NCBI RefSeq assembly: GCF_003704095.1
Contig: NW_020845515.1
Span: 248,001 to 312,000, forward strand
Origin: Pocillopora damicornis
Taxonomy: Eukaryota
DNA: 64,000 nucleotides
Reading direction: 5' to 3'
Position 1 is the stretch's first letter; each line of letters opens with the position of its first letter. The notes under the pieces were generated by a model. The model made no database searches. It saw nothing but the letters and a program-made list of their open reading frames with translations, and was not told the origin of the DNA. The position numbers were made by a program, and so were the translations under genes. This document shows, piece after piece, positions 42,868-64,000 of this stretch.

Positions 42868-43821
42868 ATGGAAAACGCTAGTGATTCATCGCCTGTTCAT
42901 GAAAGAAAAACCGAAGCAATAGCGAAAGCCACACTTTGCATGTCTGTTCTTGCGGTATCTCTCCTTGAAAACGCTATGGTTGTGCTCGTTCTGAAAAAGA
43001 ATTTCAGACGAAGTCACATGAGGAATGCCAACAGCTTATTCATTGCAAATATTTCTGTGGCGGATATTTTCTTTGCTATTCAAAATATCCCGCATGCGTA
43101 CAATAATCTAGTGCTGAACGGCCACTGGATTCTACAGGGAAACTTTGGAACAGTTCTTTGTAAGATAGACATGTTCCTTTCTGTCATTACCATGGTAACT
43201 GCAAACCTGACAATTCTGGCTATCGCAATTTATCGTCTTTGTGTGGTGTTCTTTCCTCTACGAAAAATTATCACGCGGAAGACCTGCTTCTTTATTATTT
43301 TTCTGACATGGCTGGTACCAGCTCTGTTTGCTTTGCCGATATTTTATTTCGCAAAATTCATCAGCAACGAGGGCATCACAATCTGTAGTCTCAAGGATCA
43401 AGTCATAAAAATTTTCTATGCAGGTTTCGCCGTAATTCTCTTCATGACGCTTCTTGCTATGCTCGTTTTGTACGCAGCCATCGGATTCAAGCTTTGGCGT
43501 CGAAACTTCCCCAACAACGTTAGTGAAAGAGCTCGCGCATTGAGAGAGAAGCGAAATCGTGAGATTTTCAAGATGTTAATAACTCTAATAGTCGCATTTT
43601 ATGCCTGTTCCTTGCCGATTCTAACCCTTCAATTGTCTTTCGCGCTTGACTTCTATGTGGTTTACAGTGAAACTCGACATTTCCGTTTCATTGCTCTTCT
43701 AATGCTGTTCTTAAATGGTGCCATTAATCCCATAATCTATATAGTTTTCAACAGGAGTTTTCGCAGTTGTGTTAAGGAAGTTTTGTCTAAGCGCTATTGT
43801 TGTCAACCTGTGTCTGCTTGA
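42868..43821 (+). CDS. Intronless rhodopsin-class GPCR 3 (317 aa; close paralog of GPCR 1)
   Basis: Shares KAT.CM, QNIPHAYNN, LCKIDMF, NLTILAIA, IFKMLITLIV.FY.CSLP and NGAINPIIY with GPCR 1. YRL at the DRY position. Confidence 0.92.
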   Translation: MENASDSSPVHERKTEAIAKATLCMSVLAVSLLENAMVVLVLKKNFRRSHMRNANSLFIANISVADIFFAIQNIPHAYNNLVLNGHWILQGNFGTVLCKIDMFLSVITMVTANLTILAIAIYRLCVVFFPLRKIITRKTCFFIIFLTWLVPALFALPIFYFAKFISNEGITICSLKDQVIKIFYAGFAVILFMTLLAMLVLYAAIGFKLWRRNFPNNVSERARALREKRNREIFKMLITLIVAFYACSLPILTLQLSFALDFYVVYSETRHFRFIALLMLFLNGAINPIIYIVFNRSFRSCVKEVLSKRYCCQPVSA

Positions 43822-44815
43822 CTTTAACTACAAAGTGGAGACCAGTTCAAAAGTAAAATTGGTTTCAGCGGACTGTCCAATGTCTTTAGTTAGTGAGAAC
43901 ATGCTAAGTCTTGTCACTCCAACTGGTGGCTGCTACAAAGGACGCTAAAGAATCCTTTACTTAGGTTTAGAAAATTTGATGTATTGCTAAAGAAGTCTTT
44001 TCCTAGAATTTTCTCTTAAATAAAGAGCTTTTTTATGAATAGATAAATGCGTCTGTTCTGTAATAGATCTCAGATGTCTTCAATAAATAAATAATGACCT
44101 GAATAAGAATAAAGGGGCAACTGTTTTAAATAGAAAGCATCATCTATGCGTGCGACCTCCTATAGATAATAACAGAGCACCAATCACAATGCCTGTATAA
44201 TTTAGGTTATCATGTAAAAAAAAAATACTTCGTTCTGATCCCTTGTAACAGGTTTCTCTGTTCAAAAGCTAACATCCCAGTCTTATCAGCCAAGAGGCCT
44301 GTTCAACAAAGAGCCAAGGACGAACTGGGAATTTGCTGATGTAGATGACCCGACAGAACACTTCCAGGGAAATTGCCGACGCAGACCAATGATGATGATT
44401 GTTTTTCTACCTCATAAAGAGGCAGCGAAGCGCTTTGACCCGTGATAATAAAGGAAGAGGGGCAAAAATAACGACACTGATTTCCCAATCGATACGTGAG
44501 AGGGCTTTGCGAATTTTACCCACATCAAAACATTAAAACAAGAATAGTAAGAAAAAAACAAACAATCAAAACAAAGCAAATTAAAATTGTAACACGTCTT
44601 AGCAACAGATATCCAGACACCCTTCCTCCTTATCATAAGGGCTATGTTATTTTTTTTTTCTGACACAGACAGGAGTTAAATATTTTTTTCTGCATCATTT
44701 TTCGGAAAGTTATAGGTATTCAATGTTGCCTTTAAAGACGATTAAGTCAACGTTTATCCATGTTAACAATAACAGCTGTGTTTAACTGAGAGGTTTGGCC
44801 TTAAAAATGAAATAA

Positions 44816-45204
44816 TTGGGTTATTAACTACTTTCAGATTCTGCCAACGTGGCTGACTTCCCTTCCGTGAAGTTTAAAATATTTTAGTGGCGTTTCTCAT
44901 CAGTCCGATTCCTTGCTGCTATCAATTTTATGCGTTCATTATTTTGCAAAAATGGATGNNNNNNNNNNNNNNNNNNNNNNNNNNNNNNNNNNNNNNNNNN
45001 NNNNNNNNNNNNNNNNNNNNNNNNNNNNNNNNNNNNNNNNNNNNNNNNNNNNNNNNNNCATCATCCATTTTTGCAAAATAATGAACGCATAAAATTGATA
45101 GCAGCAAGGAATTGGACTGATTAGAAACGCTATTAAAATATTTTAAACTTCACGGACAGGAAGCCAGTCGCGTTGGCAGAATCTGAAAGTAGTTAATAAC
45201 CCAA
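44816..45204. mobile_element. Long inverted repeat (arms ~145 bp) flanking an assembly gap; probable ends of a TIR transposon or foldback element
   Basis: 44816-44958 is the reverse complement of 45062-45204 with scattered mismatches. Confidence 0.7.
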
Positions 45205-45208
45205 CTTA

Positions 45209-45495
45209 GACTTAGTGTATTCTCACTAACTAAAGAAATTTGACAGTCCGCTGAAACCAATTTTACATTTAAACTGGTCTCCACTTTGTAATTTAAGTCA
45301 AGCAGACACAAGTCGACAACAATAGCGCTTCGACAAAACTTCCTTAACACAACTGCGAAAACTCCTGTTGAAAACTATATAGATTATCGGCAAGGAGCAG
45401 GCATAAAATGCGACTATCAGAGTTATTAACATCTTGAAAATCTCACGATTTGGCTTCGTGATGATCAGAATTACGTCAAAACCTGCATAGTAAAA
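45209..45495 (-). pseudogene. Inverted, internally deleted fragment of GPCR 3 (TM5 to 3' flank)
   Basis: Near-identical to ~43413-43910 (FYAGF.VIL, NREIFKMLITLIVAFYACSLP, IIYIVFNRSFRSCVKEVLSKRYCC) but lacks ICL3 and ECL3/most of TM7. No 5' half. Confidence 0.9.
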
Positions 45496-45813
45496 CAGTC
45501 CCAGAATGCGAAGAGCGGAACGGAGAAAAAAAGGAAAGATTTTATTATCCCAAGGTTCAAAAGGAGGGAACGAACACTGCTGGCGCAGTGATGACCGAAA
45601 GGCATGCACGTATACACTTACTTTTAGTGCGCTTTGACCCTAACCAATAAGTTGAACAGCTAATACTGGCTAGCCTTTTACACTAAAAGCCATACACACC
45701 ACAGGTGAAAGATTTGTCGCATCTGATTTCTAGAAAAGTTTCGATGAAAATTTTCAAAATTTTTTATGGAGAGGAAAGTCGTTTTGTGATCAGTGCTGTT
45801 TTTTTTCCGTCAG

Positions 45814-47226
45814 ATGTTTTGCTGTCCACATACCTTACATCAGTTATGTTCGGTAAACACTCGGGATACTAAACCTTGGGCCCAGTCCCCCTCCTGTGTT
45901 GCGTCTAAATGATGGTGGTCATGTTGAAAACCTTGGAATCTTGCCTCTTCTGAGACTCAGACTGAAAAGGATCATCTCTGTGGATGTGCGGCTTCAGAAC
46001 AAGCGTTTTGTAACACCTTGATGAACGCGCTCGAAATGGCCAGGAAAAAACTGAGATGTTCATTTACAGGAATGGATGGTCGAGACATCAATGAAGACAT
46101 TCGAATAAACTTTGTGGAGAGAAGTCCCGGAAACCAACCTAGGAGTTACAGGTTTGTGACTTAGTTTTTAAGGTTCAGCTAACTTGTATGTTGCACGAAA
46201 ACCCACTAATATGAAGTGTTGTTTAACCGCTTTCATTTAAGGTGCTGCGCACAAACGTCTATTTCAATTTAGTTGGAAATACTTAGTATTAGCTGAACAA
46301 AGTTTTTGGACCAATCCGCAAAATGTAGTCAAGCGGTTTTTTTCATTGAGACTTAACAGTGACTGGGACTGGTGTTTTACTACCCCTCTGCTCTTGGCGA
46401 GGAATGTGCACGCCATTCCTCCGGCCATTCAGATGCAAAACTAAAAACAATGGCGACCTACTAGGTCCCTTGCCTCTTTCCGCGCTTCAAACAGTTTGTA
46501 CGTTTGAGTTCCAATTGGCTCCTAAGATATGCGTTTGGTTTAGTTTATGATAAGTCCCCCCCACCTGACACTTTTTCAAATTGTTCCTCCGCACCTTTGT
46601 TAAGTTTTGTCCAACATCCCGCAATCGAAACGCACTCTTAAGTTTGCACGATTAAAGAAACACTCTAGGCAATTCGTAAAACCTACAGTTAAATCTGGAA
46701 AGAAGCTTGCTCGTCTTAAAAGTCAGACAGTCTATTGATATTTAAAGGAAAGATTTTATTATCCCAAGGTTCAAAGTCCAATACTTTGACAGAGATCCAG
46801 AAGGAGACGGCGACCACATGGTCGGTGAGGCAGAGGTGCTTTTCATTGCTCCTAGACACCCTAATAATAATTAAGATGACGCAACCTATGACGTGGAAGG
46901 AGGCTTGGAAGGAGAATCTTGATGAGGGGCATCGGGGAACTGGACCAGAGCTTCATGCCAAGGAGGTCGACAGGCTGACGTTCTGTTGCTGCGAGTCTTG
47001 TCATGGTGACGCTTGTAGGGGTTTTTCAGAGGGGATTTGTGGAGCATTTCCGCAGCATTCTACTTCGAATCAATTCTACACGTCAGTAATGTTTGCTGCT
47101 TATCATAGAGAAGGTTATCGCGCATGTTTGGAGGCAAAAGCCGCTGAATTTCTGAGGGAACAATCAGCTCAAGTGATCAATGTAGATCACATTCGTGTAG
47201 AGAATGTTGACGAAACAAAGATCTGA
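45814..47226 (+). pseudogene. Membrane patatin-like phospholipase pseudogene (copy B; last two exons 45814-46151 and 46769-47226)
   Basis: Inverted duplicate of the 3' half of copy A, including intron sequence. In-frame TAA at 45854, 7-bp deletion in the first exon (338 vs 345 nt), 1-bp deletion near 46868. No upstream exons. Shows the family C-terminus FPQHSTSNQFYTSVMFAAYHREG. Confidence 0.88.
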
Positions 47227-48547
47227 GTAATGCACACAATCTGTCGTGTTTGGTTAAAAGAAACAATCAGCACTAGATTGCTGTTTTAAAGTTTATTGAA
47301 AAAACTGCTTAATATTTTTTTAAAAAAGCTTGTTAGGGTGAGAATTTTTGGGCTCAAGATCAGTCATTGATCAAGAGCTCGAGTGAGCATAAAACGTTGT
47401 GGACTTTTAGTTATATGATTATGTGTAATTTTTAGTGAAGACTTGGAAACTTTCCCCGGCTGAAAACCGTTTTAGACTTAAGTTATATTATTTGCAATTC
47501 TTAGTAAAGATTTGGAGCCTTTCTCCAGCTGTAGCGAGTTACAGTAGCAGTACAGTGGAATGCAATAAAGGACACGATTATGGAAGGAATTTCGATGCAA
47601 CGTAAATGTTATGCGATATATCAGAGTGTTTTTTTAAGATGCGTTCTTNNNNNNNNNNNNNNNNNNNNNNNNNNNNNNNNNNNNNNNNNNNNNNNNNNNN
47701 NNNNNNNNNNNNNNNNNNNNNNNNNNNNNNNNNNNNNNNNNNNNNNNNCAATCATTAGTACTTATAAACAGGGCTGCAAAAATTTGGGATTGAATGCTCC
47801 AAGAAAAATTTTTTACAGACTTACGTACAAATTTTGAACATTAAACTTATCTATCAAACTATCAGCCTGTGTCAAAAGGGTAAATAGTCCTCTCATACAA
47901 AAACCATCGTAACATCAAAATAGATTTCTGACCAAACGATATGGGCCTAAAAATATTTTTCGCGGCATATTTGTAGCCTCAAAATTTACTTCTGGGCGAT
48001 TTATTATCCTAACTTGGCTAAAACAATGTGTTGATGAGGAGTTACTCTTATGACGGAACCGTTGAAAAAGTTTTAACGATTAAAACATCAGTCAAATATC
48101 AGTCAAATCCTCCTCTCGCACATACATGAGTTACAGGAATTTTACTTAGCTTTAGATTGGAAAAACGAGATTCGTGCGTTGTTCTTTTTTATAAAACATG
48201 TTGCCACGAAAACAGGGAAATAGTTAGGTAGTTTTCAGACTTTTGTTCTTTTCCAAATGCGAGTTAATTATTATTTGTTAGGAAATGAAGTTTACTCATT
48301 CGACGAGGAACTGTTTGCAATATTGCACCTTTGACAAAGACAGCTGGAAAAAGTGTGATTTCTTGGTCTTTCGTGAGAAATTTCCACAGCTAACAGACCG
48401 CAACTCTTATTCGTAAAATCTTTCAGAAGAGTCACATCTCCATAAAGATGATTCCACGATTCCTCATTTTCGCCATTCTTCTTGCCAACATTATTATGGC
48501 GGCAGTATTGGGTGAGCAAGATTTCAGCAGAAATATGAATGAGGTCT

Positions 48548-48986
48548 TTAAGTGCCTATGACGCCAATTTTTTTTTTTTTTTGCGTCTTCTGGTTGATAG
48601 CTGTATTTAGAATTTGAAATGATCGACCTTAGCGTCAAGCGAGTTCTCCTTGACAATTTTTTACGCATTGAAAGTACGATTTCGCGGCCAAAAAGGGTTC
48701 CCATTCAACCCGCGGCTTAAACGATCATGCATGTTACACAGCTGTGACGGCAGAAAACTGTGAAGAGGACGAACTTATTGCGTGGCCGGAGCGTCAAATG
48801 ATGTTAGCCATAAGAATAATACACATACACTGGGTTTTTCTATACACTACTTTCCAAAGGATATAGCTGTACAGCCAAAATGGACGCGTTTCGATGGTCA
48901 ACATCGGGGAGATTTTACTCTTCAAAGTCGTCGGCCTTATGCTCCGTCTCGGCTTCGAAAACGGCTGTTACAAAGGGTAACCAACC
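48548..48986 (+). mobile_element. Decayed THAP-domain-bearing DNA transposon fragment, running into a gap
   Basis: ~48775-48960 reads YCVAG..N.VS.KNN....GFSIHYFPKD....PKWTRF...HRGDF / KSSALCSV across a frameshift. This is the THAP zinc-finger pattern (C..FP..W..LCSxH) with ligands lost. Left boundary tentative. Confidence 0.6.
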
Positions 48987-49480
48987 NNNNNNNNNNNNNN
49001 NNNNNNNNNNNNNNNNNNNNNNNNNNNNNNNNNNNNNNNNNNNNNNNNNNNNNNNNNNNNNNNNNNNNNNNNNNNNNNNNNNNNNNNNNNNNNNNNNNNN
49101 NNNNNNNNNNNNNNNNNNNNNNNNNNNNNNNNNNNNNNNNNNNNNNNNNNNNNNNNNNNNNNNNNNNNNNNNNNNNNNNNNNNNNNNNNNNNNNNNNNNN
49201 NNNNNNNNNNNNNNNNNNNNNNNNNNNNNNNNNNNNNNNNNNNNNNNNNNNNNNNNNNNNNNNNNNNNNNNNNNNNNNNNNNNNNNNNNNNNNNNNNNNN
49301 NNNNNNNNNNNNNNNNNNNNNNNNNNNNNNNNNNNNNNNNNNNNNNNNNNNNNNNNNNNNNNNNNNNNNNNNNNNNNNNNNNNNNNNNNNNNNNNNNNNN
49401 NNNNNNNNNNNNNNNNNNNNNNNNNNNNNNNNNNNNNNNNNNNNNNNNNNNNNNNNNNNNNNNNNNNNNNNNNNNNNNNN

Positions 49481-52400
49481 ACCCCTACAAGCGTCACCAT
49501 GACAAGACTCGCAGCAACAGAACGTCAGCCTGTCAACCTCCTTAGCATGAAGCTCTGGTCCAGTTCCCCAATGGCCCTCGTCAAGATTTTCGTTAATGTC
49601 AATTAACGCCTCCTTCCACGTCATAGGTTGCGTCATCTTAATTCCCTTATTGGGGTGTCTAGGAGCGATGAAAAGCACCTCTGCCTCACCGACCATGTGG
49701 TCGCCGTCCCCTTCTGGATCTTTGTCAAAGTATTGGACTTTGAACCTTAGGACAATAAAATCTTTCCTTTAAATATTGGCAGACTGTCAGACTTGTAAGA
49801 CGAGGAAGCTTCTTTCCAGATTTAACTGTGGGTTTTATGAATTGCCTAATGCGTTTCTTTAAAGGTGCAAAATTAAGAGTGCGTTTCGATCGTGGGATTT
49901 TGGGCAAAACTTAACAGAAGGGCAGTGGAACATTTTGAAAAAGTGTCGGGTGTGGGGGAGGACTTGCCATAAGCTGAGCCAAACGCATGTCTTATTAACA
50001 AGCTCCAGTCAGAAAAAAGGAAACAATACAAGGAGCCAATTAGAACTCAGATCAAAACGTACAAACTGTTTGAAGCGCGGAAAGAGTCAAGGGACTTGGC
50101 CAGTCGCCATTGTTTTTAGTTTTGCATCTGAATGGCCGAAGGAATGGCGCGCACATTCCTTGCCAAGAGCAGAGGGGTGGTAAAACACAGGTCCCAGTCA
50201 TTGTTAAGTCTCAATGGAAAATCGCTTGAGTACATTTTGCTGATTGGTCCAAAATCTTTGTTCAGCTAACACTAAGTATTTCCAACTAGTTTGAAATGAG
50301 AGGCTTGCGTGCAGTACCTCACATGAAAGCGGTTAAACAACATTTCAAATTAGTGAGTTTTCGCGCAACATACAACACAGCTGAACCTTAAAAACTAAGT
50401 CACAAACCTGTAACTCCTAGGTTGGTTTCCGGGACTTCTCTCCACAAAGTTTATTCGAATATCTTCATTGATGTCTCGACCATCCATTCCTGTAAATGAA
50501 CATCTCAGTTTTTTCCTGGCCATTTCGAGCGCGTTCATCAAGGTGTTACAAAACGCTTGTTCTGAAGCCGCACATCCACCATAAACAGAGATGATCCTTT
50601 TCAGTCTGAGTCTCAGAAGAGGCAAGATTCCAAGGTTTTCAACATGGCCGCCATCACTCAGACGCAATACAGGAGGAGGACTGGGCCCAAGGTTTAGTAT
50701 CCCGATTGTTTTCCGAACATAACTGATGTAAGGTATGTGGACAGCAAAATATCTGACAAAAAACACAGTATGGCTTTTAGTGTAAAATGCTGGCCAATAT
50801 TGGCTGTTCAACTTATTGGTTAGGGTCAAAGCGCACTAAAAGCAAGTGCATACCTGCGTGCCTTTCGGTCATTAGGGAACTGAAGCATAGACGTCTTTAG
50901 ACGCGGATGGTACCCAGACGTTGAAAGTTCTTCTTGCTATCTCTTATTACGAGTAATTTGTCGGAAGAGTTTATTTTAAAATGCTACAACAAAAGATTAT
51001 GAAATTCTTTATTTTTGGTACCAAGGCGCGCCAGCAGTAGACGTTCCCTCCTTTTATTCACCATCCCCATCTTAAATGCCAGGGTTGCGGACATGCATAT
51101 CACCATGAGCAGGGGCGTTCTTACAATATAGGGAAGGATTTCAAAGAAACGCGCACACACAGGAATAGTAATACCCTCGAATAAATACTCCAAAGGTTGT
51201 CCTTCCTCGACGAGAGTGAAACCCTTAGAGGCGAACATTAAATTACTGTTAGTGACGATAAAAAAGGCATATTCAAACCTGGCCATCCTCTCCACCCGGC
51301 TGGGATTAGCAGATCCCGTGGGTATCAAGGCGATTACGGTCAACAGCAACAGAAGCAAGAAGAAACAAAATACTCCAAAGGTGAGATAGTCGTCACCGCC
51401 AAAATTATGGTAGAAAACGTATGATATCAAAAGTGGAGAGACTCTGAATATCTCGATGAAGTACGGAAGAATCTGAAAAAAAAAAAACGACGTACCACAT
51501 TAAACGTTTAATTCTGCTGTCCTAAGAATCAAGGACACTCAAGTATGTGTCAAAATATGATATTACCCCACGAAACTTCGCTCATCGGTTATTGATTGTC
51601 CTGATTCTTTTTTCGGAAGAACAAAGTTATACCAACCTGAAGGCAAATATTGAGTTTCCTGACATGCCTCGGGTCGCTGACAACAGAGTTACCCATAGCA
51701 ATTCCCAAGGTGACTTTCAGGTCTTTAAACATCTCTTCACCTTCCAGGGCACCCATGTGATGATCAACAGCAGCAGCTGACGTTGCCATGGCATCGGACA
51801 AGTAAATGTCCTCCGGCATAAGCTTGCCTTCTAACTCGCGCTCATGCGCAGGTCGATCCAGTCGTTCAATCCCTTGGGGGGACATGATAAGTGCTTCGTA
51901 GTCGGGTTCCGTGGAGGAGGTGGTGCGTCGCCATCGGTTGACCGCTGCATTGCTGATAAAGATAGGCTTGACGTTCTCAAGATCTTCCAAGGTCAGCGGG
52001 CGTTCAGGGTCGAGGTTAACACGCTGTTTGTGATCGAAATATGGGCAGCTGAGAAAAAAGTTGCGGAAGGAAATGCCGGCACAACCACACAATCCTCGAC
52101 TGGTTGGCGTGAACAAGGCTTTTTGTAGCCGCCACCTGCAACTCAAAGAAGATCAAACGGCGTATTTAGATCTAGAGTTACATGCTCAATGGGCCAATTA
52201 AGGCCAACGCGATACAGACGCTTACTAAAACGCCCACGTGCCATCCCCATGCGCGCGAGATTGTTTACAAGGGCGCACGCAACATGTTATTATTTCATAC
52301 GTAATAAGCGCTTGCATTGATTAGATGGCGGCACCATCATAAAGGCTAGAGCTCCACCTCATTGAACTTCGTTAATTTCATAATCAACGAGTAAAAGGAA

Positions 52401-53452
52401 CTATCGCTTCTATACAATTCCGCAAAAAAGTGAAATGAAAACTTTTTAGGTACTCATAAATTTTGATATAATTATGTTTTAATCTCATGGTACTAGCTAA
52501 AGGGGAGAGAAAAGGGAGACATACAATTCACATACCTGTTGTAGACATGACCCAGACGCTGTTGTATCGTTCCTATCAGAGGTGAGATCCATAAGAGTAA
52601 CCCTGAAGCCCACAACTGCTGAGCAAAGAAGTGGTCCGTGTAGGGATAAAAACTAAAGCTTTTCTTGTACACCCTATACACAATTACGTACGCGTAAAAA
52701 TACACAATTACGACGAGCGTAGCGTTTTTTCTCATCACAGGAAACGAAAACCAAAGCACCACGGTGGGTAGAATGATCAGAACTCTCATCCAATCAGGTA
52801 TGAACTCGAGCACGTCATGAAAAAACCAGGGCAGAAACACAAGGCCGAATATGACTCCAAACGAAGTGGTCAGGAAGGAGGAGGCGTTTTTTAATCCAGG
52901 TAACATTGGTGCGATGAAGTAAGAAGCAAATGCTAAGACAAGAGGAGCACCAAACAAAAGGAACCTTTCAATAGCTTTCCTCTCCCGTCTCTTTTCGCAT
53001 TCTGAGACTGTTTCGTTCACCAGCAGCGCTGAGCTGTCACAATGTGTTATGATTCCGCCGCGGATGATATCCCCCGCTAAATAGTCGACAGCGAAAGCTA
53101 GAGGGCATGCGTAAGCACTCCACAAAATAAATGGAACAACAAGGGTGACGAAAACTGGAAGACAGAAAAGAACTGTACAATCAAATACTCCATGTATAGG
53201 CCGCTGCCAGTCGCAAAAGATCCCACTCCGCTCGCGCAGATGGTTAAAGAATTTGAAATGCCAGTCTTTGCTGTCTTGCTTGCCATGACGGTACTTCCAG
53301 TCCATGTAAGCAGAGCCTGTATAACCTCCCCCTGACACGCAACTCAGATAATCCAAGTTGGTCTCTCGCTGAAGCAGTCTGCGTAAGACTCCAGAGCAGA
53401 AGGCCGCTGACCGAACTCCGCCGCCTGAGAATGCTAACCCAGCTTTGGCCAT
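49481..53452 (-). CDS. Multi-pass membrane patatin/cPLA2-like phospholipase, copy A; exons 53452-52536, 52135-51637, 51472-51279, 50752-50408, 49745-(gap)
   Basis: In-phase GT-AG junctions (phases 2,0,2,2). Motifs GLAFSGGGVRSAAF, DYLSCVSGGGYTG, LSDAMATSAAAV, LSDGGHVENLG. Several hydrophobic helices lie between the catalytic Ser and Asp. No lesions visible; the last ~65 codons fall in gap 48987-49480. Confidence 0.88.
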
Positions 53453-53809
53453 TTTCTATGAAAGATTAAAACAATTTGAATGATACTCAAAATTTAGTTG
53501 GGGACTATAGGATTGGACGCTATTCAGTTAAAAAAAATTCATTAGGGAAAAAAAAAAACATAAAACGTATGGAAATGCTCCTTAAAGAACCCGGCACCGG
53601 GTGCTCTCGCAGTTCTAATTACATGACTTGCAAAGATAGTGTATATCTCCTTAATATTTGTTTGTTGATTTTTGATTTTCCACTTTTATCTTCCCTTTCC
53701 ATCCTGCCATTATTCTTCGCATATTTAGGTGTCTTTTTCTCTATTTTTGTTTCTTTGTTTGTTTGTTTGTTTGTTTTTTTTTTCCAGAAAACGCTCTCTC
53801 GGTTTAAGG

Positions 53810-54228
53810 AGAGTCTTAATGGGGTGATGGCTTTACGGCTAATGGTTAAAATTTTGGCCAATGACGGTTAACACTTTTCCATTGTTTCCACCAGACATAT
53901 TTTTTACGATTAACTTTTCTGACGACTAACGGTTTAAATTTGTCAGTTTTTACGCCAAAGGGCTAAATGTTTTGGCCGTTTTACGGGTAACGGTTAACCC
54001 CATTGAGACCCTATTTAAAGCAGAGCGTTACGGTCCTTCTTAGAGGTCCAAAAGCGGTTAACCGTCAGCCGTAACACGGCCAATAAGTTTACTCGTCAGG
54101 CGTAAAAAAATTCTCAAATTTTAAGAGCCAATCGTAAAATACGTCAAAGAAGCTAGCCGGTAAACATAAAAAATAGCCAAAATTTTAACCGATAACCGTA
54201 AAAAGCCATTACTTCATTGAAAACCTCT
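53810..54228. mobile_element. Two copies of a ~200-bp MITE in opposite orientation (53810-54012 and 54042-54228)
   Basis: Each copy has gag(a/g)gtct.aatgggg / ccccattgagaccct-type termini and internal ttaaccgt/acggttaa repeats. The second copy is the reverse complement of the first. Confidence 0.65.
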
Positions 54229-55086
54229 TCTTATATTCTTTATTCAGTTATCTTTTTCCTCTATCTTGGATCTTTGGTCTCACTAATTTACTATTGTTAT
54301 TATTGTTTTTGTTAGCAATATTATCATTATAATAAGTATTTTTCCTTTTAAAAGCAAAGTCTTAAGTGGTCTTTAACCTGCGCCAGAGGTCCCCGACCTG
54401 GCAAAAATTACAGTTTAGAAATTGATGGACTTACAGAAAATGAAATATGACCATTTTCATTCTCTTCCTGCATGAATATATTGATCGATCAGTCATCCAT
54501 GAAGTCATTATGCAACTGAGCAAGAGTAAACATGTGAGCCGCTTTGTGTCTGTTTTAATCCGACTGTTGTGAGTTTGCCAAAGAAAACGGTTTTTGTCTG
54601 ATTAGTGTAAATCATTGATCCATGAAAGGACAGATAATTTATCGATCTTATATGAAACGACAACTCCAAATTAGATATAGACGCCACGATTGACTTTTTT
54701 TCCTTTCGCTTAGTTTAAGCACTTCCGCACAAAATTATGTTCCACATATTTCATGATATATCTCATCCACCATCAAGACAACTGATCGATGTCGTCGATT
54801 AATTAGCTTTTGAAGATTTGGACCTTCGAAGCAGAACGGGATTACTTGCCTAATGTCTCTGTCTTAAACGCTAAACATACTAAATCATGCCACAAGTTTG
54901 CTTCGTGTTTACTTACCTAATGGGAAGTTAGTAGATTGACAACGTGTATTCCGCGTTAAAAGTAATCTCACTTTGTTAGAGAGCTAAATTAATGAGTCGA
55001 GCGGCGTCTGAACAAGGCCTAACGAACTTACAAACCACTCGCTTGTGATAAATTAAGTCAACGACGTGAGACAGTAATAAGATACA

Positions 55087-55697
55087 GGGTCAATTGACCC
55101 CCCCACTGTTAGGACAGAAGTTTTTTTCCAAACCAGGGCCCGGAGAGGCATACAGTAATGTGGACCCTTGGACTATTTTTCGGACCATATTTTTGGGTCC
55201 ATTGTTTGGACCATTTTTTTTTACCTTTTTTGGACCATTTTTTGGGAACAATTTTGGACTACCAGTGGGAGGCGGGGGAAGGCAGACCATTAGTGGTCAG
55301 GGAGGGGTGGGATGCAGTCTACCACTACTGAGGGAGGGGTGGGAGGCGGACTGTTATTACTCAAGGAGGGGTGGGAGACCGTTATGCAGGGAGGGGTGGG
55401 AGGTGGTTGTATTAGTAAATACTACTGATTAATTAAGTTTTTACGAAATCATACAAATTATTTTGAGCAGTGGCACGAACAATATCATAACCGAGCGTTC
55501 AAATACAAATGTAAGATCTTAGCTTGCGGAATGTTGTAAATTGTTAATTAGAGTGTGGCTGCTGTTGCACGTCGTCTCAATTAGTGTTTTTCCAACCGGT
55601 GAGTCAGCTTCTTTTGTTTTCCATATCGCATACTTTCATTCACTATTGTTTATTCGTAATTATTGGCGTCAAATATACTTTCACTTAGTCGTTTCGC
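55087..55697. repeat. Dispersed repeat / transposon end with internal ttttggacc and ggaggggtggga tandem units
   Basis: Visible short tandem units at 55165-55260 and 55300-55405. Runs into a gap. Confidence 0.5.
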
Positions 55698-57196
55698 NNN
55701 NNNNNNNNNNNNNNNNNNNNNNNNNNNNNNNNNNNNNNNNNNNNNNNNNNNNNNNNNNNNNNNNNNNNNNNNNNNNNNNNNNNNNNNNNNNNNNNNNCAA
55801 AGCAGATAAATAAAATATTGTTGATCATTCGTGAGCTTGACAATTTCTTAGAATTATTTATAGTACACTACTTGCAAATTAAAGTAATAACATTATCAAC
55901 ATAGCTTACATTATGTGGAGAAATTACAAAACTAGTTTAATTACCCTAACCAAGTTTTGATGATCGAAGTAATGACATAACATGAGTTTTATTTCCCTCA
56001 GTTCATGGTGATATATGTTTTAGTTATGTCAATTCGTATGTTATTTGTAATGCTTTTTTTCTTTTGTTTTGTCCTTTTGTTTTATTTCTTATTATACCCC
56101 AATATCATGTACACGGACGGAGCAGCATTTAGTGTTGTTGTCTCTGTCGCTCGCAACTCTGTACTCTCAGCCGTGAAACTGTGTAAATACATTTAACTTT
56201 TTTTCACAAAATCCTTGAAACTATGTAAATACATTGTGACGTATAATTTTCTTTCGTTTGTTTTTCTCGTTTCTTTTATTTCGTAGTATACCTCAATATC
56301 ATACACACGACTGGAGCAGCATCTAATGTTGTTCTCCCATCCGCTCACAACGGTGATCATAAAACTATGTAAATACATATAAATTTTTGCCACAAATTCA
56401 ATGTAACATCTAGCTAAGAGGCGATGATTGAGAAGACGATCCTATCACGGATATGGTGTTACATGACTTAGAGATGAAATTCTAAAATTTTCATTCCAAT
56501 TAACAAGAGCAAAGTAAAGCTGCATTCTGGTATGAATTTTGGCTCACCATGACGACTACAAGAGGAAATCTCGAAGGCCCCGAAGCAGTTCATTTCAACG
56601 CTCGGTTGAAATGAAACGCGCGAGAGGTTACGCGCGCAAGTATAAGGAGCTTGCGTGACTTCCTTATCACGCCTGTTTCTTTCTTTCTTGCTGGGTAGCT
56701 GCTTCATAGAGTCATAGGCTCAACATTTCGGGTCAGTTGTGGTCACATCCTTGAAAGCTAACAATTAATAACGGTAAAAAGACTGAGTGGAGTCCATATC
56801 GGTCTCGTGATTAACAAATCGGACTCCTGCTTTGCGGTCGCCCGATTTTGTTAATCATTCAGGTGTTTACAGACAGAATTGGACGACACGAGGGTCTGTT
56901 ACCAGTCAATCAAAACTACGACAAAATTTGAGAAAAAAACTAGACGTCGGTTATAAGTTTTCAGAACCTGAATCGAGCAACTGAGTAAAAACAACCTGAC
57001 TGAGCAAAATTTTAAAACGGAAATAGTGATTGCATTTAATATGGAAAAGAGACAAGAGAAGGTAGCCATAATAAAGGTTTCTTACTCATACTTAACCTCT
57101 ATTTCTTTCCGCAGACGAAACGCAGATAGGTATAAGTTTTTTTTTTAAATTTTGCTGTTTTCTTCCATTGAAAATAGTGCAATTCCCGATATCACC

Positions 57197-59666
57197 ATGG
57201 CAAAGTTTGGGTTATCGTTCTCTGGAGGCGGAGTCCGGTCAGCGGCATTCTGTTCAGGAGTGTTGCGCAGACTGCTGCAGAAGGAGGTGCGAATAGACTA
57301 TCTGAGTTGCGTGTCTGGGGGCGGTTACACAGGCTCTGCGTACGTCGACTGGAAATACAGGCATGATAAGAAAGATGACAAGAAATGGCATCAGAATTTC
57401 TTTAATCACATGAGGGAAAATGTCGGCTTAGTTTGCAGTTTTCAAAATCCCTGCCAAGGTATTTTCGACTGCGTGATCTTTTGTGCTCTAGCATTATTCA
57501 TCTCTGTCATCGCGCCTTTCATAATTTGGGGATCATTCGCACATCCACTGGCCTATATTATCGATTACCTCTTCGGCAGAATTTTGAGGGGTGGCAGCCG
57601 TCCGTGTCCAGAAGAGGTCAGGTTGAATCCAAACACAACCCTGGACGATTGCCTGCAGAATCGTAAGAATGCGGACAAAATTTACGATCGCGTTCTACTC
57701 TTCTTCGTGCCTGCTCTCCTCGCTTTCATATTCTACGTCTTGAAAAGACGCGTCAAAAGAGGAGAAGGTCATTTCAATTGGCTTTCGCTCTTCAGTTTAA
57801 TGATGTTTGGAATTCTGTTTTTTCCCTGGTTTTTAAACATTTCCCTGCGACTTGTACCAGACGTTTTGAAAGGGTTGCTCCTTGTGCCAATGATCATTTT
57901 TTGGTTTTTATTTCCTGGCCTGCGTGACAATGCATCACTGGTATTCGTCGTGTATCTCTACTCGTTTGTCATCCACTTCAGAGTGTATCGTATAAATGCC
58001 TTTGGCATCCTCTACGATGATCGCATCTTTGATCAAGCATTTGCAGCATCTATACTTCTAATGTGGGTTGCCCCTTTGGTTATAGCGATACAACAAAGCA
58101 TTGTTCATATTTATGTCAGGTGAGGATAAGTGAGCTTAATTTTTCAATGCTGTTCGTATCTCTACTGTCACGGGGTTGTGTGCGCGGTTAATTCAANNNN
58201 NNNNNNNNNNNNNNNNNNNNNNNNNNNNNNNNNNNNNNNNNNNNNNNNNNNNNNNNNNNNNNNNNNNNNNNNNNNNNNNNNNNNNNNNNNNNNNNNAACC
58301 TATTTGTGGATATATCACCTTTTCTTGAATTCAAGGGACGTATCAGGTCATTTTCCCGTGGTGGTGTATCAAACTATAGGGACAGTTACCATTGGCGGAA
58401 ATTGTGCACCCTGATGGTGCTAAGATTAAGGGAAACGGGGACGCGATATTTGAGAGTTAACGGGAAGCGTGAGCCACGCAGGTTCAATAGATCGTTTTCA
58501 TATGACGTGTCACTGAGGCCATCGTGGTAACCAAAACATAAAATTCTCCACCACGTTGGTGTAGGGGTAGTCGTGTGGGATTTGAACCATTTTAAGTATA
58601 TAGTAAACATTTCCTTTGTTCCAGTTAATTTACATCGCTGCTCATTACGTGATTAAAAGTGTCCTTTATAGTGGAAATCCAAAATGGTGGGTCTCTGATT
58701 TAAAACGATGAACGTATTTCAAGGTTCCTCGCTCGTAATTTCATTTTATGAAAGAAAAATCAAATAACTTTTTCTCGACAGATGGTTGACAATCAATACC
58801 CTTGGTGGTCACTATCATCGTAAAGCGATGAATGTCATAAATGTTGGATCCAACCCGCCGGCTGTTTTGTCCCTAAGTGATGGCGGCCATCTTGAGAATC
58901 TTGGCATTCTCCCCTTACTGAAGCTGAGGCTTAAAAAGATCGTGGCAGTAGATGGAGGAAATACTATTCTGGATCAAGACTACGCGGACGCCCTATTAAC
59001 TGCTCTGGATATGGCTAGGAAAAAGTTAGGCTGTTCATTTTCAGCCCTGGATGGACGAGATATCGCTGAGGATATTCGGGATAACTTCGTTGAGAGGAGC
59101 CCTGGGTCACAGCCAAGCAGCTACAGGTACTTGACGTAAAACTTGATGGATAAACACTCTTTTTTGTTTGTTTCTTTTCAAGGTAATCTTTGAAAATATA
59201 TTTGTTTAAGTTTCAAATAGTCAATTTTTTCATCCATTTTAGAGCGAATGGATTTTGGGAATGGCTGATTTTTAATTTCGGGTGTAATCTTAATATAGCA
59301 AAAAAATTAAACATGTACCTCTTAATAATTACATTTATATAGCGCAGACCTCTATATGGATATATTCAGTGGTGCTTCACAATATTGTCAAAGTAAAATT
59401 ACGTAAAAAGCATGTTTCCTCTTACATGGTTTACAGGATTGTTTTTCTCTTATGTGCTTCCAGATTCAAAGTTTATTATTATGAAAAGAATGTTAACTGC
59501 GACGGAAAGACCAAAGTTGGCGAAGGAGAAATTCTCTATATAGCTCCCAGGCATCCAGGCAAAAGGGTGAAAACCTCGCCTTACGTTACATGGGAGCAAG
59601 CGTTGCGTGACATCGACGAAGATCTCGAGGCAGGCCTTTGGGGCGCTGGACCTCAGTTATCATCAG
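57197..59666 (+). CDS. Multi-pass membrane patatin/cPLA2-like phospholipase, copy C; exons 57197-58119, (exons 2-3 missing in gap 58197-58296), 58782-59126, 59464-(gap)
   Basis: MAKFGLSFSGGGVRSAAF, DYLSCVSGGGYTG, LSDGGHLENLG, VAVDGG. Intron positions and phases match copy A (exon 4 is 345 nt in both). The pieces either side of the gap could belong to different paralogs. Confidence 0.82.
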
Positions 59667-59806
59667 NNNNNNNNNNNNNNNNNNNNNNNNNNNNNNNNNN
59701 NNNNNNNNNNNNNNNNNNNNNNNNNNNNNNNNNNNNNNNNNNNNNNNNNNNNNNNNNNNNNNNNNNTACCTTAGATAAGGCCGATATCCTCCTCCATAAT
59801 TGAAGA

Positions 59807-62800
59807 ATGGCGAGAATTGGAGTTGCTTTTTCCGGTGGTGGTATTCGGTCAGCGTCATTATGCTCGGGTGTCCTGCGCAGACTGCTGCAGAAGAAGGTTA
59901 ACATAGATTACCTAAGCTGTGTCTCAGGGGGTGGTTACACAGGCACTGCATACCTTGACTGGAAATACCGACATGGAAAGAAGGACGACCCCGAGTGGCA
60001 CAAACAGTTCTTCGAGAACATGCGCAAGAGAAGTGGCATCTTTTGCAACTGGAAGAAACCCTGCCAAGGAATCTTGGATTCCATTATCTTGTCCACCATG
60101 GTGATATTTGTGGCTTTCATTATTCCAATTCTTCTTTGGACCTCCTACGCATGCCCACTAGCCTTTGTAGTTGATTTCCTGTTTGGACGTATTCTGAGAG
60201 GAGGAAGCAAGCCATGCAAAAAACTCGCCAAGCGCGATCCTAAAATATCATTGAAGGAATGCGAACTTGAACGCCATGCATCTCCAGAGGTGGTAAATCA
60301 GCAATTTATCCTTTTTGCAGTTCCTGTGGCGGTTGCCATTGTTTGTGGAGTAGTAAGAAGTATGATCCCAAAAGGAAAAGGATTCTTCAATTTCCTCATC
60401 ATGTCATGTGTCGTGTTCTTCGGCCTGGTGTTCATTCCGTGGTTCATCGACAATTTTCTGGCTTATATTCCAAATTGGATGAAGATCCTCATCATTTTGC
60501 CGACTTTTATTGTGTGGTCTTCGTTCCCGCTCATGCGCAAAAATGCCACGCTGATGTTGGTAATTTATTTCTACTCCTTCGTAATTTACTGGAGGGTATT
60601 CAATGGAAGAGTGTTGGAGATAGAGTACGATGATGAAATATTTTTTATGCTGCTGGCGATTTCAACCCTCTTTCTATGGAGTGCGCCGATTATTGGTACA
60701 GTACAGCAACGTATAGGTCACGTGTACAACAGGTAAGGTTAATTTTGCATATGAACCAGACATGAATTTCCTGGTTTTATCAGCACTAACCCTTTGAATC
60801 ATAAGAGTGACTAGCATCTAATTTCTCCGCACAATATCAACCCAACAAGATAAAGGAAATGATCACCAACTTAAAAAGCTCTTGATAGTTAAACAAATTC
60901 TCCTTTCAGCACCTGAAGAATTATTTAGAGAACACTATGGAGAATATGCATATTAATGTTAGGGTATAAAGGTCAAGCGACTAGGAGTAGTGCTACTTTT
61001 CCCGGTTCACAAATGAAGTTAGAGTGGCTTGGCTCAGTGTAGAGTCTCTGTGGCTCAGTGGTAGAGCATCTGAGCCGGAATTTGAAGGTCTGAGGTTCGA
61101 TTCGTTCTTTTGGTTTTGTTTTTTATTTTTCCTACGCTCATGACAAGACTTCTTCCATTGAGGAGGACTAACAAGGTTTATAGAGGCTTATGGCTATTCA
61201 AGCCGGGAGAAAGCCTATCTAACACTAACAAGCCTATGGGCTAACCTTCAGTTCTAAGTTTCAGTTCGAAACTTCAGCATCCCCCCACCAGGCAACTCAC
61301 GGCGTTTGACTCTCCTCCGTGTTCTTTCTACATAAAAATTGACCATTAAATCCGGAACTTGGACGGGGCATTTGAACAAAATTTTGGCCCCGGGGGACGG
61401 GAATTTAAGCGAACCAATCTCTAAAAGTTCAAATGCCCGAGGCGTTGCCCGGGGGATAATAAAGCTTCGGATTTATTAACGTATAACTGACTTGCAGATG
61501 GCGCATTCAAAGAGCACTCTACACACCAGCAAGCGTCGGTTGCTGTGGTTGTACTGGGATCTCATGGCGCGACCTTTTTCTTCGCTGTCCGAAGTGTCCA
61601 CGCTCCAGGCCACGAGAAATAAATATTTCCACAGCTTTGACACTAGAGGACCTTGATGATGTGAAGCCAATTTACATAAGCGGTATCACCATAAACAAAT
61701 GGAGACGGACTAACTCCCCCAAGGAGCCAGATTATGAACTATTGATGATGACACCTCATGGGATTGAACGACTTGATCGGCCACCCAATGAACGTGAGTT
61801 TGATGGTAAACTTATGCCTGTGGACATTTACCTGTCAGATGCCATGGCAACGTCAGCTGCTGCCGTGGATCATCATATGGGAGCGAGGGAGAGTGATGAC
61901 GCGTCCTTTAGAGATTTAAAGGTTATTCTTGGAGTTTCCATGGGAACGGCCATTGTTTCAGACGAGCGACACGAAGGAAAAAGAAATTGTTGTATTCAGG
62001 TGAGGACACCCTCTCTCTCTCGTTAAATCGTTAGCTATGATCGTCGGGTCGCAAGTTTAATGATATACGGATTGAAATTTTGCCTTAAACCTTTAACTCC
62101 CAAGATACCATTAGTAATTCTCATTATTGTCTGACATGCAATTTGTATGATGTCAATTTGGAGAATTTGGTATTAGATCAACTAATAATCCCCTAGCTAA
62201 TATTTTACTTTTTTCTCATCACTTCTATGCTTGATATTGTATTGTTGTTGTAAGGAGAAACTCTCTCTTGATCACTCATGGGCGGTAAAGGGTTAAAGAA
62301 ACGAGTTAATTTAAGTCCTGTAATTGAGCCATTGATTCTGACCCAGTCTGAGCTTATTCAGGTTTCTCTGTAGCATGAGGCGATTAGGATTATACCACTC
62401 CCCCCTGGATGAAATGCTAGTCCATCGCAAGGTTACCCCCCAGCATTTCATTGAACCCATTTATACTTGGGCAGAGAGAGGCACTGTGTGAATGAAGTCT
62501 TTCTGTCTAAGAGCACAACACATTGACCTGGCCCGGTCTTGAACCCAGACCTCTCGACCTGGAGTCCAGTGCAATGATCAGTAGACCACTGCGTGTCCCG
62601 CTTAAAGGAACAAGGATTCACACAATTTATTTTGTATTCATTCAGATTCATTTTACTCTTTAAATTCTTACCACCAGAAACAACAATATCTAACTGTTTT
62701 TAGTTTGGCTTGTTTTCAGTTCTTGCCTCTCCTTGTTGAGGTAATCCGGATCCTTCCTTTGGTGCTGTGTCTCATTATATTTTGGCACACTGACCAGCGA

Positions 62801-62913
62801 CGTTACTTAGCCTATGGCATACTGAGTTTCTTTGCTATACTTGTGTTGCTCACATTGACTGCGCTCGTACCAACCGGCGGAAGTAAGCCTGGAAGGCTTG
62901 AGAGAATCGCCAG
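59807..62913 (+). CDS. Multi-pass membrane patatin/cPLA2-like phospholipase, copy D; exons 59807-60732, 61498-61999, 62720-62913; continues past the window
   Basis: MARIGVAFSGGGIRSASL, DYLSCVSGGGYTG, YLSDAMATSAAAVDHHMG. Same intron positions as copy A (exon 3 is 194 nt in both). Confidence 0.88.
60787..60975. mobile_element. TTAA-type (piggyBac-like) MITE
   Basis: taacccttt ... aaaggtcaa termini; intronic; similar style to 62085-62295. Confidence 0.55.
61040..61150 (+). mobile_element. tRNA-derived SINE
   Basis: tggctcagtggtagagcatctgagccggaatttgaaggtctgaggttcgattc, with tail cctacgctcatgacaagac. Same family as 22094-22208. Confidence 0.7.
62085..62295. mobile_element. TTAA-flanked (piggyBac-like) MITE
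   Basis: ttaa-acctttaactccca ... tgggcggtaaaggg-ttaa. Confidence 0.65.
62340..62600 (-). mobile_element. Near full-length tRNA-head SINE (Nin/Deu-core-like body)
   Basis: Minus strand reads gtggtctactgatcattgcactggactccaggtcgagaggtctgggttcaagacc (A and B boxes), then gtgttgtgctctt..., aaatgggt..., gggggtaaccttgcgatggactagcat...catgctacagagaaacc. Confidence 0.75.
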
Positions 62914-64000
62914 GTAAGTTTGCTGTTCACTGAAGTCATCCATTCGGAATGGAAAAGTGATACGCTGCAGCCATAGACTTCGACCTGGGGCCACGGTGAT
63001 TGTGACGCTAGTTCTATTAAAAAAAGAAAAAAAATTATGAAAAAAAAAAAACCGAGAATGAAACAGTTACCATGGTGTGGTCATTTGCCTCAAATATTGC
63101 TTGATTGCTCAAATCTGGACAGGGATTTATACTTAACCGTAGGATTTGGAACGCAATAAGCAGAAGTGAAAAACACGATTTGTTACCGCAGTGCGCTCTC
63201 TCCTTTTGCATTTAAACTGTTTTATGCACAAAATTATTAAATTTTCTACATCGTGACATGCGTTTATTTGCGAACCGTTCCACTCTAGAGTGCGCTTTGC
63301 GGCTTGACCAAAATGAAAGAAGTTACAGGAAAAGATGGCTGGAAAGTTTAGGCCGAGTCTGACGTGCCTCTCCCAAGTATAAATATAGTGCTACTGCGAG
63401 TTGAACAAGGAGGCCACATGTTAAACTTAACAAGTTTAATATGCGGCTTTTTTTTACCCAAGAGAGAATCTGATTACCAACAACTGAAATAAGTATCTTG
63501 GCTGACTTTTGTCTTGGCCGCTCAACAGATAGTGTACTTTTGGGATGTGGCCGTAATGTCAAAATACAACTAGGATCAATGGCACGTTCCAGCCACAGAA
63601 TCCACAGTGAAATAAAAATACCAGCAACTCTAAGACGCCGTCGCTAAAAAACGTTGATTATTTTTTGTTTCTTCACTGCAATTTCAAAGTTGAACAACAA
63701 GGGTGTCGGTTTTTGTAAGCATATCCAGTATAAGGGAGAACTTATACAGCTCAGTGCATGTTCAAACCCATTCATTTTAGTGTTTCCTGTGATAATAAGG
63801 GGCAAAAANNNNNNNNNNNNNNNNNNNNNNNNNNNNNNNNNNNNNNNNNNNNNNNNNNNNNNNNNNNNNNNNNNNNNNNNNNNNNNNNNNNNNNNNNNNN
63901 NNNNNNNNCCCCCCCCCCCCCACCACCTCACGCTGGGAGTACGTAAGTAATGTTAGTCTATCGAAGGTTACGCCAGAATCTTCCTGGTATTACACGTGTG

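Follow-up and report, generated by a model that had tools for sequence, protein, structure and literature searches.

Four related loci in the window

Positions 248,001 to 312,000 (forward strand) of contig NW_020845515.1, in assembly GCF_003704095.1 of the coral Pocillopora damicornis, form the 64,000-nucleotide stretch analyzed here, which is referred to throughout as the window. Between positions 45814 and 62913, a six-frame motif scan reveals four related loci, G1 to G4, which carry the motifs of a family of multi-pass membrane proteins resembling patatin and cPLA2 lipases. An earlier description made from the letters of the DNA (the sequence-only reading) had presented this region as a tandem cluster of three intact, diverged paralogues and one pseudogene, each gene comprising about 800 codons in five coding exons. 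The four loci were recovered, the motif series was found in the order and at the places given, and the full products of G2 (803 residues) and G4 (804 residues) agree with the proposed size and exon number. The divergence of the paralogues and the presence of a pseudogene likewise held. However, the arrangement is not head-to-tail, as G2, on the minus strand, is transcribed away from G3 and G4 on the plus strand, and G1 is an inverted copy; nor is any of the four genes complete within the window. The FPQHSTxNQF motif is readable there in the pseudogene G1 only. The features are as follows.

45591..47022, plus: inverted duplicate of the 3' half of G2, from part of intron 3 on (blastn, 87-92% to 49481-50872)
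45814..46151, plus: copy of exon 4 in G1, with a premature TAA (45854-45856) and a 7-nt deletion relative to G2
46769..47226, plus: copy of exon 5 in G1, with deletions of 2, 5 and 4 nt relative to G2; contains the Cys string and FPQHSTSNQF
49481..49745, minus: G2 exon 5, visible part; Cys string CCCESCH near 49498-49519, remainder under N
50408..50752, minus: G2 exon 4, 345 nt; LSDGGHVENLG
50653..50655, minus: G2 Asp570 codon, predicted general base, in D-G-G
51279..51472, minus: G2 exon 3, 194 nt; second, eukaryote-type transmembrane hairpin
51637..52135, minus: G2 exon 2, 499 nt; catalytic-domain strands and LSDAMATSAAA helix
52536..53452, minus: G2 exon 1, 917 nt; ATG, Gly-rich loop, Ser40, first membrane insert and Cys-bracketed loop
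53333..53335, minus: G2 Ser40 codon, predicted nucleophile, in C-V-S-G-G
53411..53425, minus: G2 GGGVR, residues 10-14, predicted oxyanion/phosphate-binding loop
57197..58119, plus: G3 exon 1, 923 nt, open frame
58782..59126, plus: G3 exon 4, 345 nt; LSDGGHLENLG
59464..59666, plus: G3 exon 5, start only, running into N
59807..60732, plus: G4 exon 1, 926 nt, matching protein P0005
61498..61999, plus: G4 exon 2, 502 nt, matching P0005
62720..62913, plus: G4 exon 3, 194 nt, matching P0005

G2 and G4 are real genes that are both spliced and expressed. The protein P0001 (803 residues; 356 member sequences; contig of 2888 nt) matches all five exons of G2 at 98-99%, and P0005 (804 residues; 150 members; longest contig 3467 nt) matches exons 1, 2, 3 and 5 of G4 at 98-99%. 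Neither contig is as long as its gene span, so that both represent spliced transcripts. Furthermore, a share of 0.51-0.62 of the sampled sequence words of G2, whose exons make up 56% of the stretch, was present in eight runs recorded as RNA (22 listed runs, nine studies). The open reading frame of G2 begins with the ATG at 53452 and remains open for 740 codons, with the last ~63 codons hidden under N (48987-49480). All exon boundaries visible in the window are GT-AG, and the intron phases of G2 (2,0,2,2) match those in the other loci.

The other loci are less complete. G4 begins with the ATG at 59807 and is open for 540 codons through its first three exons. Its exon 5 lies just past the end of the window (G000:C2150:312149-312596), while exon 4 was not found in the neighboring assembly, where a 100-N stretch occupies 63809-63908. 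In G3 (ATG 57197), for which no transcript was seen, exons 1 and 4 and the start of exon 5 are visible; exons 2 and 3 are not present in the window, and a 100-N stretch stands at the expected place. As the 662 nt between exons 1 and 4, including these 100 N, are fewer than the ~695 nt of exons 2 and 3 together, either the gap is unsized or the loss is real. G1, finally, is a 5'-truncated and frameshifted pseudogene. It is an inverted copy of the 3' half of G2 (87% DNA identity over 1292 nt) that lacks exons 1-3, and both of its remaining exons contain deletions, in addition to the premature stop codon. The 5' end of the duplicate abuts inverted pieces of a G-protein-coupled receptor (GPCR) gene with no N between them; by blastn, 45208-45457 matches 43548-43911.

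Fold, predicted active site and membrane architecture

The AlphaFold model of the coral protein, built from a 22-sequence alignment, has a mean predicted local distance difference test score (pLDDT) of 81.8 and a predicted template modeling score (pTM) of 0.82. Comparison with solved structures by VIA-align gave human cPLA2alpha (1cjy) as the best match, with a Z-score of 18.0 over 373 aligned residues, a root-mean-square deviation of 4.4 and 14% sequence identity. It is followed by PlpD (17.6), cPLA2delta (16.2), CapE (14.9), iPLA2beta (14.0), CapV (13.9), patatin (13.5), VipD (12.1) and ExoU (9.9). The top ten matches, with Z-scores from 18.0 to 9.9, all belong to the patatin superfamily, and unrelated structures begin at 5.9, which bears out the proposed patatin/cPLA2 fold. 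Sequence searches of solved structures, by contrast, gave no meaningful match from either P0001 or the cnidarian profile, while the profile of the bacterial relatives retrieved mostly unrelated membrane proteins; its match to cPLA2delta, at the N-terminal motif, had an E-value of 0.0016. NCBIfam assigns no family.

The predicted active site consists of a Gly-rich loop, Ser40 and Asp570. Among 47 full-length cnidarian-type proteins, the GGG-x-[K/R] loop and the SGG motif are present in all 47 and DGG in 46. In a broader alignment of 102 rows, the Ser40 column is kept in 13/13 cnidarian, 35/36 other eukaryote or environmental and 53/53 bacterial rows, and the Asp570 column in 13/13, 34/36 and 53/53, respectively. 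The GGGxR, Ser and Asp motifs correspond to the patatin motif definition in PMC12480259. The two residues of the dyad lie 530 residues apart in the sequence, with membrane helices between them. A few relatives have degenerate motifs and are possible pseudo-enzymes: P0126 from the sponge Sycon lacks GGGxR and the Asp of DGG, and DGG is altered in P0151 from Planoprotostelium and in P0164.

The arrangement of these motifs resembles that of the group IV cPLA2 enzymes (1cjy; cPLA2delta, 5ixc/5iz5), in which a Gly-rich loop with an Arg is likewise followed by the Ser ~30 residues on and by an Asp far downstream across large inserts. Group IV enzymes, with the exception of cPLA2gamma, bear an N-terminal C2 domain. 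The coral protein, however, has none in a Pfam scan; its first catalytic strand begins at residue 4, and its inserts are membrane helices. The PLA2_B lysophospholipase model (PF01735) does not match full-length P0001, reaching 8.6 bits on exon 1 only. The loci in the P. damicornis genome that do match PF01735 lie on four contigs, all of them other than those of the present family, which therefore adds to cPLA2 rather than standing in for it. With the patatin and PNPLA proteins (PF01734; 1oxw, 6aun, 5fqu), the coral protein shares the fold (Z 13.5-17.6), GGGxR, DGG and the predicted Ser-Asp dyad, but it differs in its nucleophile motif (C-V-S-G-G for G-x-S-x-G), in the separation of the dyad and in its multi-pass build, and no ankyrin or other PNPLA accessory domain was matched. 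The sequence-only reading had set the proteins apart from both the animal PNPLA lipases and the C2-domain cPLA2 enzymes, and this distinction is upheld by the separate PLA2_B-type loci.

The catalytic domain is split by two hydrophobic inserts. By a hydropathy scan, P0001 has 5+1 segments and the cnidarian proteins have a median of 5+2; the topology is nevertheless predicted to comprise ~6+2 transmembrane helices, because the two halves of the active site have to lie on the same side of the membrane. Orientation is suggested by the N-glycosylation sequons, which are denser in the Cys-bracketed loop (131-163), at 3.3 per 100 residues, than in the predicted cytosolic parts, at 0.3-0.5 (16/21 sequences); this excess argues for a loop on the luminal side and a catalytic domain in the cytosol. 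No signal peptide was seen in the N-termini of 12 proteins, inspected by eye and by hydropathy, and the Gly-rich loop starts as early as residue 10.

Together, these observations are best explained, with a probability of about 60%, by a family of integral-membrane Ser-Asp lipases of the patatin/cPLA2 fold that act, from the cytosolic side, on the membrane in which they themselves sit, releasing fatty acids for remodeling or signaling; the activity itself is predicted. The ~6+2 helices would hold the catalytic domain, which would face the cytosol, permanently at the cytosolic leaflet of the secretory-pathway or plasma membrane, and would stand in for the calcium-binding C2 domain of cPLA2. The loop that follows the first membrane segment would be luminal, closed by a disulphide and N-glycosylated. 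Ser40, activated by Asp570, would attack the acyl ester and release the fatty acid, which would serve membrane remodeling or lipid signaling. The Cys string, located just before the last motif of the catalytic domain, may be a site of lipidation or metal binding that tunes activity. A series of local duplications, together with occasional losses, presumably produced the paralogues, which are likely to act on different substrates or in different cell types.

Several observations weigh against this interpretation. Foldseek gave no match at E ≤ 0.001, the best being cPLA2 at E 0.06. The Pfam Patatin model (PF01734) covers only the first ~60 residues (6-62), with 25.3 bits for P0001 and 24.8 bits for P0005, below its curated cut-off of 27.7 bits, although some relatives and exon 1 of G3 exceed the cut-off on the same short stretch. 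The nucleophile motif of the window genes departs from G-x-S-x-G, as noted above, and the hydropathy scan yields fewer helices than the predicted 6+2. The evidence for splicing and expression consists of contigs and word shares. As to the history of the family, which is considered below, the trees are unrooted, many of the eukaryote-type rows are environmental sequences, and the approximately unbiased (AU) test did not reject a grouping of animals with bacteria (p 0.0655).

Two other functions compatible with the fold can be weighed at this point. The proteins might be transacylases or lysophospholipases that move acyl chains between lipids within the membrane, with the helical inserts serving as the acceptor path. 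Transacylase activity occurs in cPLA2gamma, fungal PLB and several PNPLAs, and by analogy such an activity would suit a protein whose closest fold is cPLA2 and which has a weak Atlas lead to PLA2_B lysophospholipases (score 0.80). Yet a shared fold does not tell hydrolysis from transfer, and this alternative is considered rather unlikely. A venom or secreted toxin phospholipase would be in keeping with a cnidarian host and with the fold shared with ExoU and VipD. The lack of a signal peptide ahead of the Gly-rich loop, the multi-pass membrane build and the occurrence of orthologues in non-venomous protists and a sponge, however, leave this idea with hardly any credibility.

Expansion in corals and distribution among eukaryotes

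The P. damicornis genome contains at least 14 matches to exon 1 on nine contigs, one of them with an internal stop. G1 is a fragment beyond these copies, and a second clear pseudogene lies on contig C1129. These numbers agree with the lineage expansion and birth-and-death evolution that had been proposed from the cluster alone. The paralogues located on other contigs share, in most exons, 82-91% identity with proteins from Stylophora. Consecutive locus numbers in Oculina (LOC144653542-552) and in the jellyfish Sanderia (gene13869-13871) indicate that the family is clustered in those genomes too. Gene structure varies among the paralogues, as the fourth intron is absent in L007:4020-4769, L011:4316-5086 and L013:3562-4305, and extra introns interrupt exon 2 in L011:6035-6983 and L012:4029-5322.

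In exon 1, G2, G3 and G4 share 47-50% amino-acid identity and their synonymous sites are saturated, which shows them to be old duplicates, while G1 is evidently a young copy. Selection was assessed on exon 1 only, using 76 frames that collapsed to 65 and yielded 21 independent close pairs. The ratio of non-synonymous to synonymous substitution rates (dN/dS) lies between 0.07 and 0.46 in all 21 pairs, with a pooled value of 0.28; by part, it is 0.19 in the N-terminal catalytic region and 0.44 in the loop. No pervasive positive selection was found among these pairs, although selection acting on single sites can go unseen in pairwise averages. Gene turnover in the family is real, but the data do not demonstrate an arms race.

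At E ≤ 1e-30, a profile search covering 1.84 billion representatives returned 321 proteins. At E ≤ 1e-10 it returned 6856 clusters; the analysis covered the 150 best of these, and 30 hits were looked up for taxon. The named animal members are from scleractinians, one octocoral, Nematostella (one homologue found, LOC116617811), Sanderia and Sycon. The named protists are Protostelium, Planoprotostelium, Cyanophora, Gefionella, Paulinella, Polarella and protists from the Marine Microbial Eukaryote Transcriptome Sequencing Project (MMETSP), and thus include amoebozoans, a glaucophyte, a malawimonad, Paulinella and a dinoflagellate. Multiple copies occur in corals, Sanderia, Sycon and Planoprotostelium. 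No bilaterian, placozoan, ctenophore, choanoflagellate, fungus or land plant was among the named hits, with 30 hits looked up. The best 150 included 146 new identifiers, 102 of which are fragments shorter than 600 residues, 100 nearest to cnidarians and two nearest to Sycon. Two Sycon-like exon-1 fragments, P0200 and P0203, were also seen; P0203 ends at the YNR position of coral exon 1, which hints at an intron shared by sponge and cnidarians. A metagenome scan retrieved close relatives, of which many show the exon pattern of the coral genes, but as its patterns were derived from cnidarians it does not test for prokaryotes with the eukaryote-type build.

Full-length homology links the coral proteins to a family of uncharacterized bacterial multi-pass patatin-like proteins (HHalign probability 100, E 1e-53, 589 columns), a likeness that the sequence-only reading had pointed out. 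No curated family model for these bacterial proteins was found. The two groups share the order of motifs and the position of the first membrane insert, between the Ser and the SAAA/SGAA helix, but the bacterial members mostly lack the second hairpin and the Cys string. The second hydrophobic insert is present in 41/41 scorable cnidarian proteins (of 47) and 12/12 scorable other eukaryote-type proteins (of 28), compared with 1/57 scorable bacterial proteins (of 72) from GTDB. Similarly, the Cys string was detected by pattern in 36/49 eukaryote or environmental rows (one off-target) and in 0/53 bacterial rows. The environmental sequences P0186 and P0195 have the second hairpin without the Cys string, and branch between the bacteria and the other eukaryote-type rows; their provenance bears on how the family arose.

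Two trees were computed from 298 core columns with the membrane inserts excluded: a quick tree of 102 rows and a careful tree of 47, the latter leaving out 55 rows, including five long branches. The split between bacterial and eukaryote or environmental rows is supported at 100/100 in the 47-row tree and at 99 in the 102-row tree, with all bacterial rows on one side. In the 47-row tree, cnidarians group with Sycon (98/98), and the animals group with amoebozoans, Cyanophora and environmental rows (95/94), splits that the 102-row tree reproduces; in both trees, protists branch between animals and bacteria. Although the inserts were left out of the trees, the distribution of the second hairpin agrees with this split. 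The view of a bacterial-type gene borrowed by an animal is not supported by this comparison, as the closest relatives come from a sponge and from protists belonging to several supergroups, and the eukaryotic proteins have an architecture of their own.

In the best trees, the coral family falls outside all sampled bacteria, subject to the missing root and the AU result. It was likely inherited from early eukaryotes rather than acquired by recent bacterial transfer, and a single old eukaryotic origin followed by many losses offers the simplest reading, although transfer between eukaryotic lineages may also have distributed the family. A separate horizontal transfer from bacteria to early animals, with protists acquiring the gene independently, would concern the origin of the proteins and not their function. 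The wider family (6856 clusters at E ≤ 1e-10) is mostly bacterial among the rows examined, its eukaryotic distribution is patchy, and the AU test leaves the grouping of animals with bacteria unrejected. On the other hand, the best tree places two starred branches as well as the protists between animals and bacteria, the second hairpin and the Cys string are common to animals and protists and nearly absent from the sampled bacteria, and viral contigs gave 92 pattern matches but no relative. Such separate transfers are accordingly regarded as improbable.

As a branch of the multi-pass membrane patatin/cPLA2 lipases, the eukaryotic proteins, which have multiplied in corals, are real but apparently undescribed. 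In agreement with the earlier view of the family as uncharacterized, no paper on it was found in the literature searched, a search whose scope excluded subscription journals and bioRxiv supplements. The family has probably been counted once: according to PMC10236652, orthogroup OG0000157 comprises 191 IPR016035 and 21 patatin hits across 25 cnidarians, and its top BLAST label is a Stylophora 'Retrovirus-related Pol polyprotein', the name also borne by the family member P0037. On the strength of this shared name, OG0000157 is probably the present coral lipase family; in the main text of PMC10236652, neither 'lipase' nor OG0000157 occurs. The P0037 gene model, from Stylophora, fuses reverse-transcriptase and RNase H-type domains to a family member, and this fusion appears to mislabel the orthogroup. 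Names such as 'uncharacterized' and the retroviral Pol label may have helped to hide the family.

Known animal patatin/cPLA2 lipases reach membranes via C2, ankyrin or similar targeting parts. In the present branch, the anchor appears instead to be an integral part of the catalytic domain. The branch, found in a sponge and across cnidarians and not detected in bilaterians among the named hits, seems to belong to the lipid enzymes of early animals and to have been overlooked. Corals have a rich oxylipin chemistry and symbiont-containing membranes, and a predicted membrane lipase family of at least 14 copies is a candidate for coral fatty-acid release or membrane remodeling.

Bacterial neighbors and the question of defense

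The sequence-only reading had further proposed that the expansion is of a kind typical of defense, toxin or symbiosis genes, and had pointed to the patatins of bacterial immune systems. On this reading, the proteins would be immune or cell-death effectors: lipases activated by a signal that rupture host, symbiosome or pathogen-containing membranes in the manner of CapV, and whose expansion in corals results from conflict. Genomic neighborhoods of the bacterial relatives were considered at 79 GTDB loci, including nine orthologous Bradyrhizobium loci, through a scan of 90 of 210 near neighbors and 17 cluster representatives. At six of the 79 loci, the patatin gene adjoins genes for TIR and SLOG cluster-2 domains, fused or split:

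L025:5260-7710: TIR and SLOG cluster-2 beside the patatin gene
L042:6630-9041: the same
L044:3110-5370: the same
L049:7973-10128: the same
L060:8071-10409: the same
L064:8418-10477: the same

In four of the six, the pair lies on the same strand within 90 nt of the patatin gene. The hosts belong to Verrucomicrobiota, Pseudomonadota and Myxococcota; that of L060 is Methylomonas rosea. Other conflict-type neighbors occur at single loci, namely nSTAND1, TIR-CTD2 and a nucleoside deoxyribosyltransferase-like protein; the nSTAND1 NTPase gene lies upstream at L060, and the TIR-CTD2 gene is at L064. The TIR-SLOG-patatin loci constitute a candidate Thoeris-like system with a putative membrane lipase effector, and the triplets are a separate candidate for phage defense.

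For the coral proteins, an effector role would be consistent with these neighbors, with the multiple copies in corals, Sanderia, Sycon and Planoprotostelium, and with the structural match to CapV, which kills by phospholipid hydrolysis according to PMC12480259. The likeness to CBASS CapV and CapE is one of patatin fold (Z 13.9-14.9) and catalytic motifs, as described in the same source. CapV, however, has ~340 residues, is activated by cyclic dinucleotides and is encoded with a cyclase, and no cyclase was present among the bacterial neighbors scanned. PADLOC gave no match for two coral, one protist and three bacterial-type proteins, apart from one row at E 0.18, and Pfam found no sensor, death or NLR domain in the coral proteins. 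Moreover, the remaining 73 of the 79 bacterial loci have mixed neighbors and no TIR-SLOG pair among the neighbors scanned, and all six loci that do have one fall into a single 14-row bacterial subclade, which is not the sister of the eukaryotes. Finally, no exon-1 pair has a dN/dS above 0.46, with the reservation about averages made above. The proposal of a defense or toxin function thus finds little support, given purifying selection in 21/21 exon-1 pairs, the lack of a signal peptide and of a PADLOC match, and the distance of the TIR-SLOG subclade, and an immune effector is judged unlikely.

A broader version would combine origin and function: cPLA2-like membrane lipases possibly as old as the last eukaryotic common ancestor, retained in sponges and cnidarians but lost in bilaterians, would still be signal-gated, membrane-rupturing immune effectors, as their TIR-SLOG-linked bacterial relatives would be, multiplied in corals for the control of pathogen or symbiont membranes. 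This remains a speculation to which we attach little weight. A link to oxylipins, through haem peroxidase/catalase-like, RoxA-like and DyP neighbors of the bacterial genes, was likewise considered and not used, as these neighbors are scattered over few loci and often lie on the other strand.

Elsewhere in the window, the lipase cluster is preceded by three single-ORF (open reading frame) genes for rhodopsin-family GPCRs on the plus strand (36743-37840, 39051-40196 and 42820-43821), two of which match 7tm_1; the first and third share 65% DNA identity. The segment immediately before G1 (44816-45457) is rearranged, with an inverted duplicate around a 100-N stretch followed by inverted fragments of the neighboring GPCR gene (93-96% identity). 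A 292-codon open frame encoding a charged, low-complexity product lies at 16326-17204 on the plus strand. At 339-1547, an imperfect inverted repeat (815-1545, 81% self-complementary), accompanied by shorter related copies, is possibly the remnant of a small transposon.

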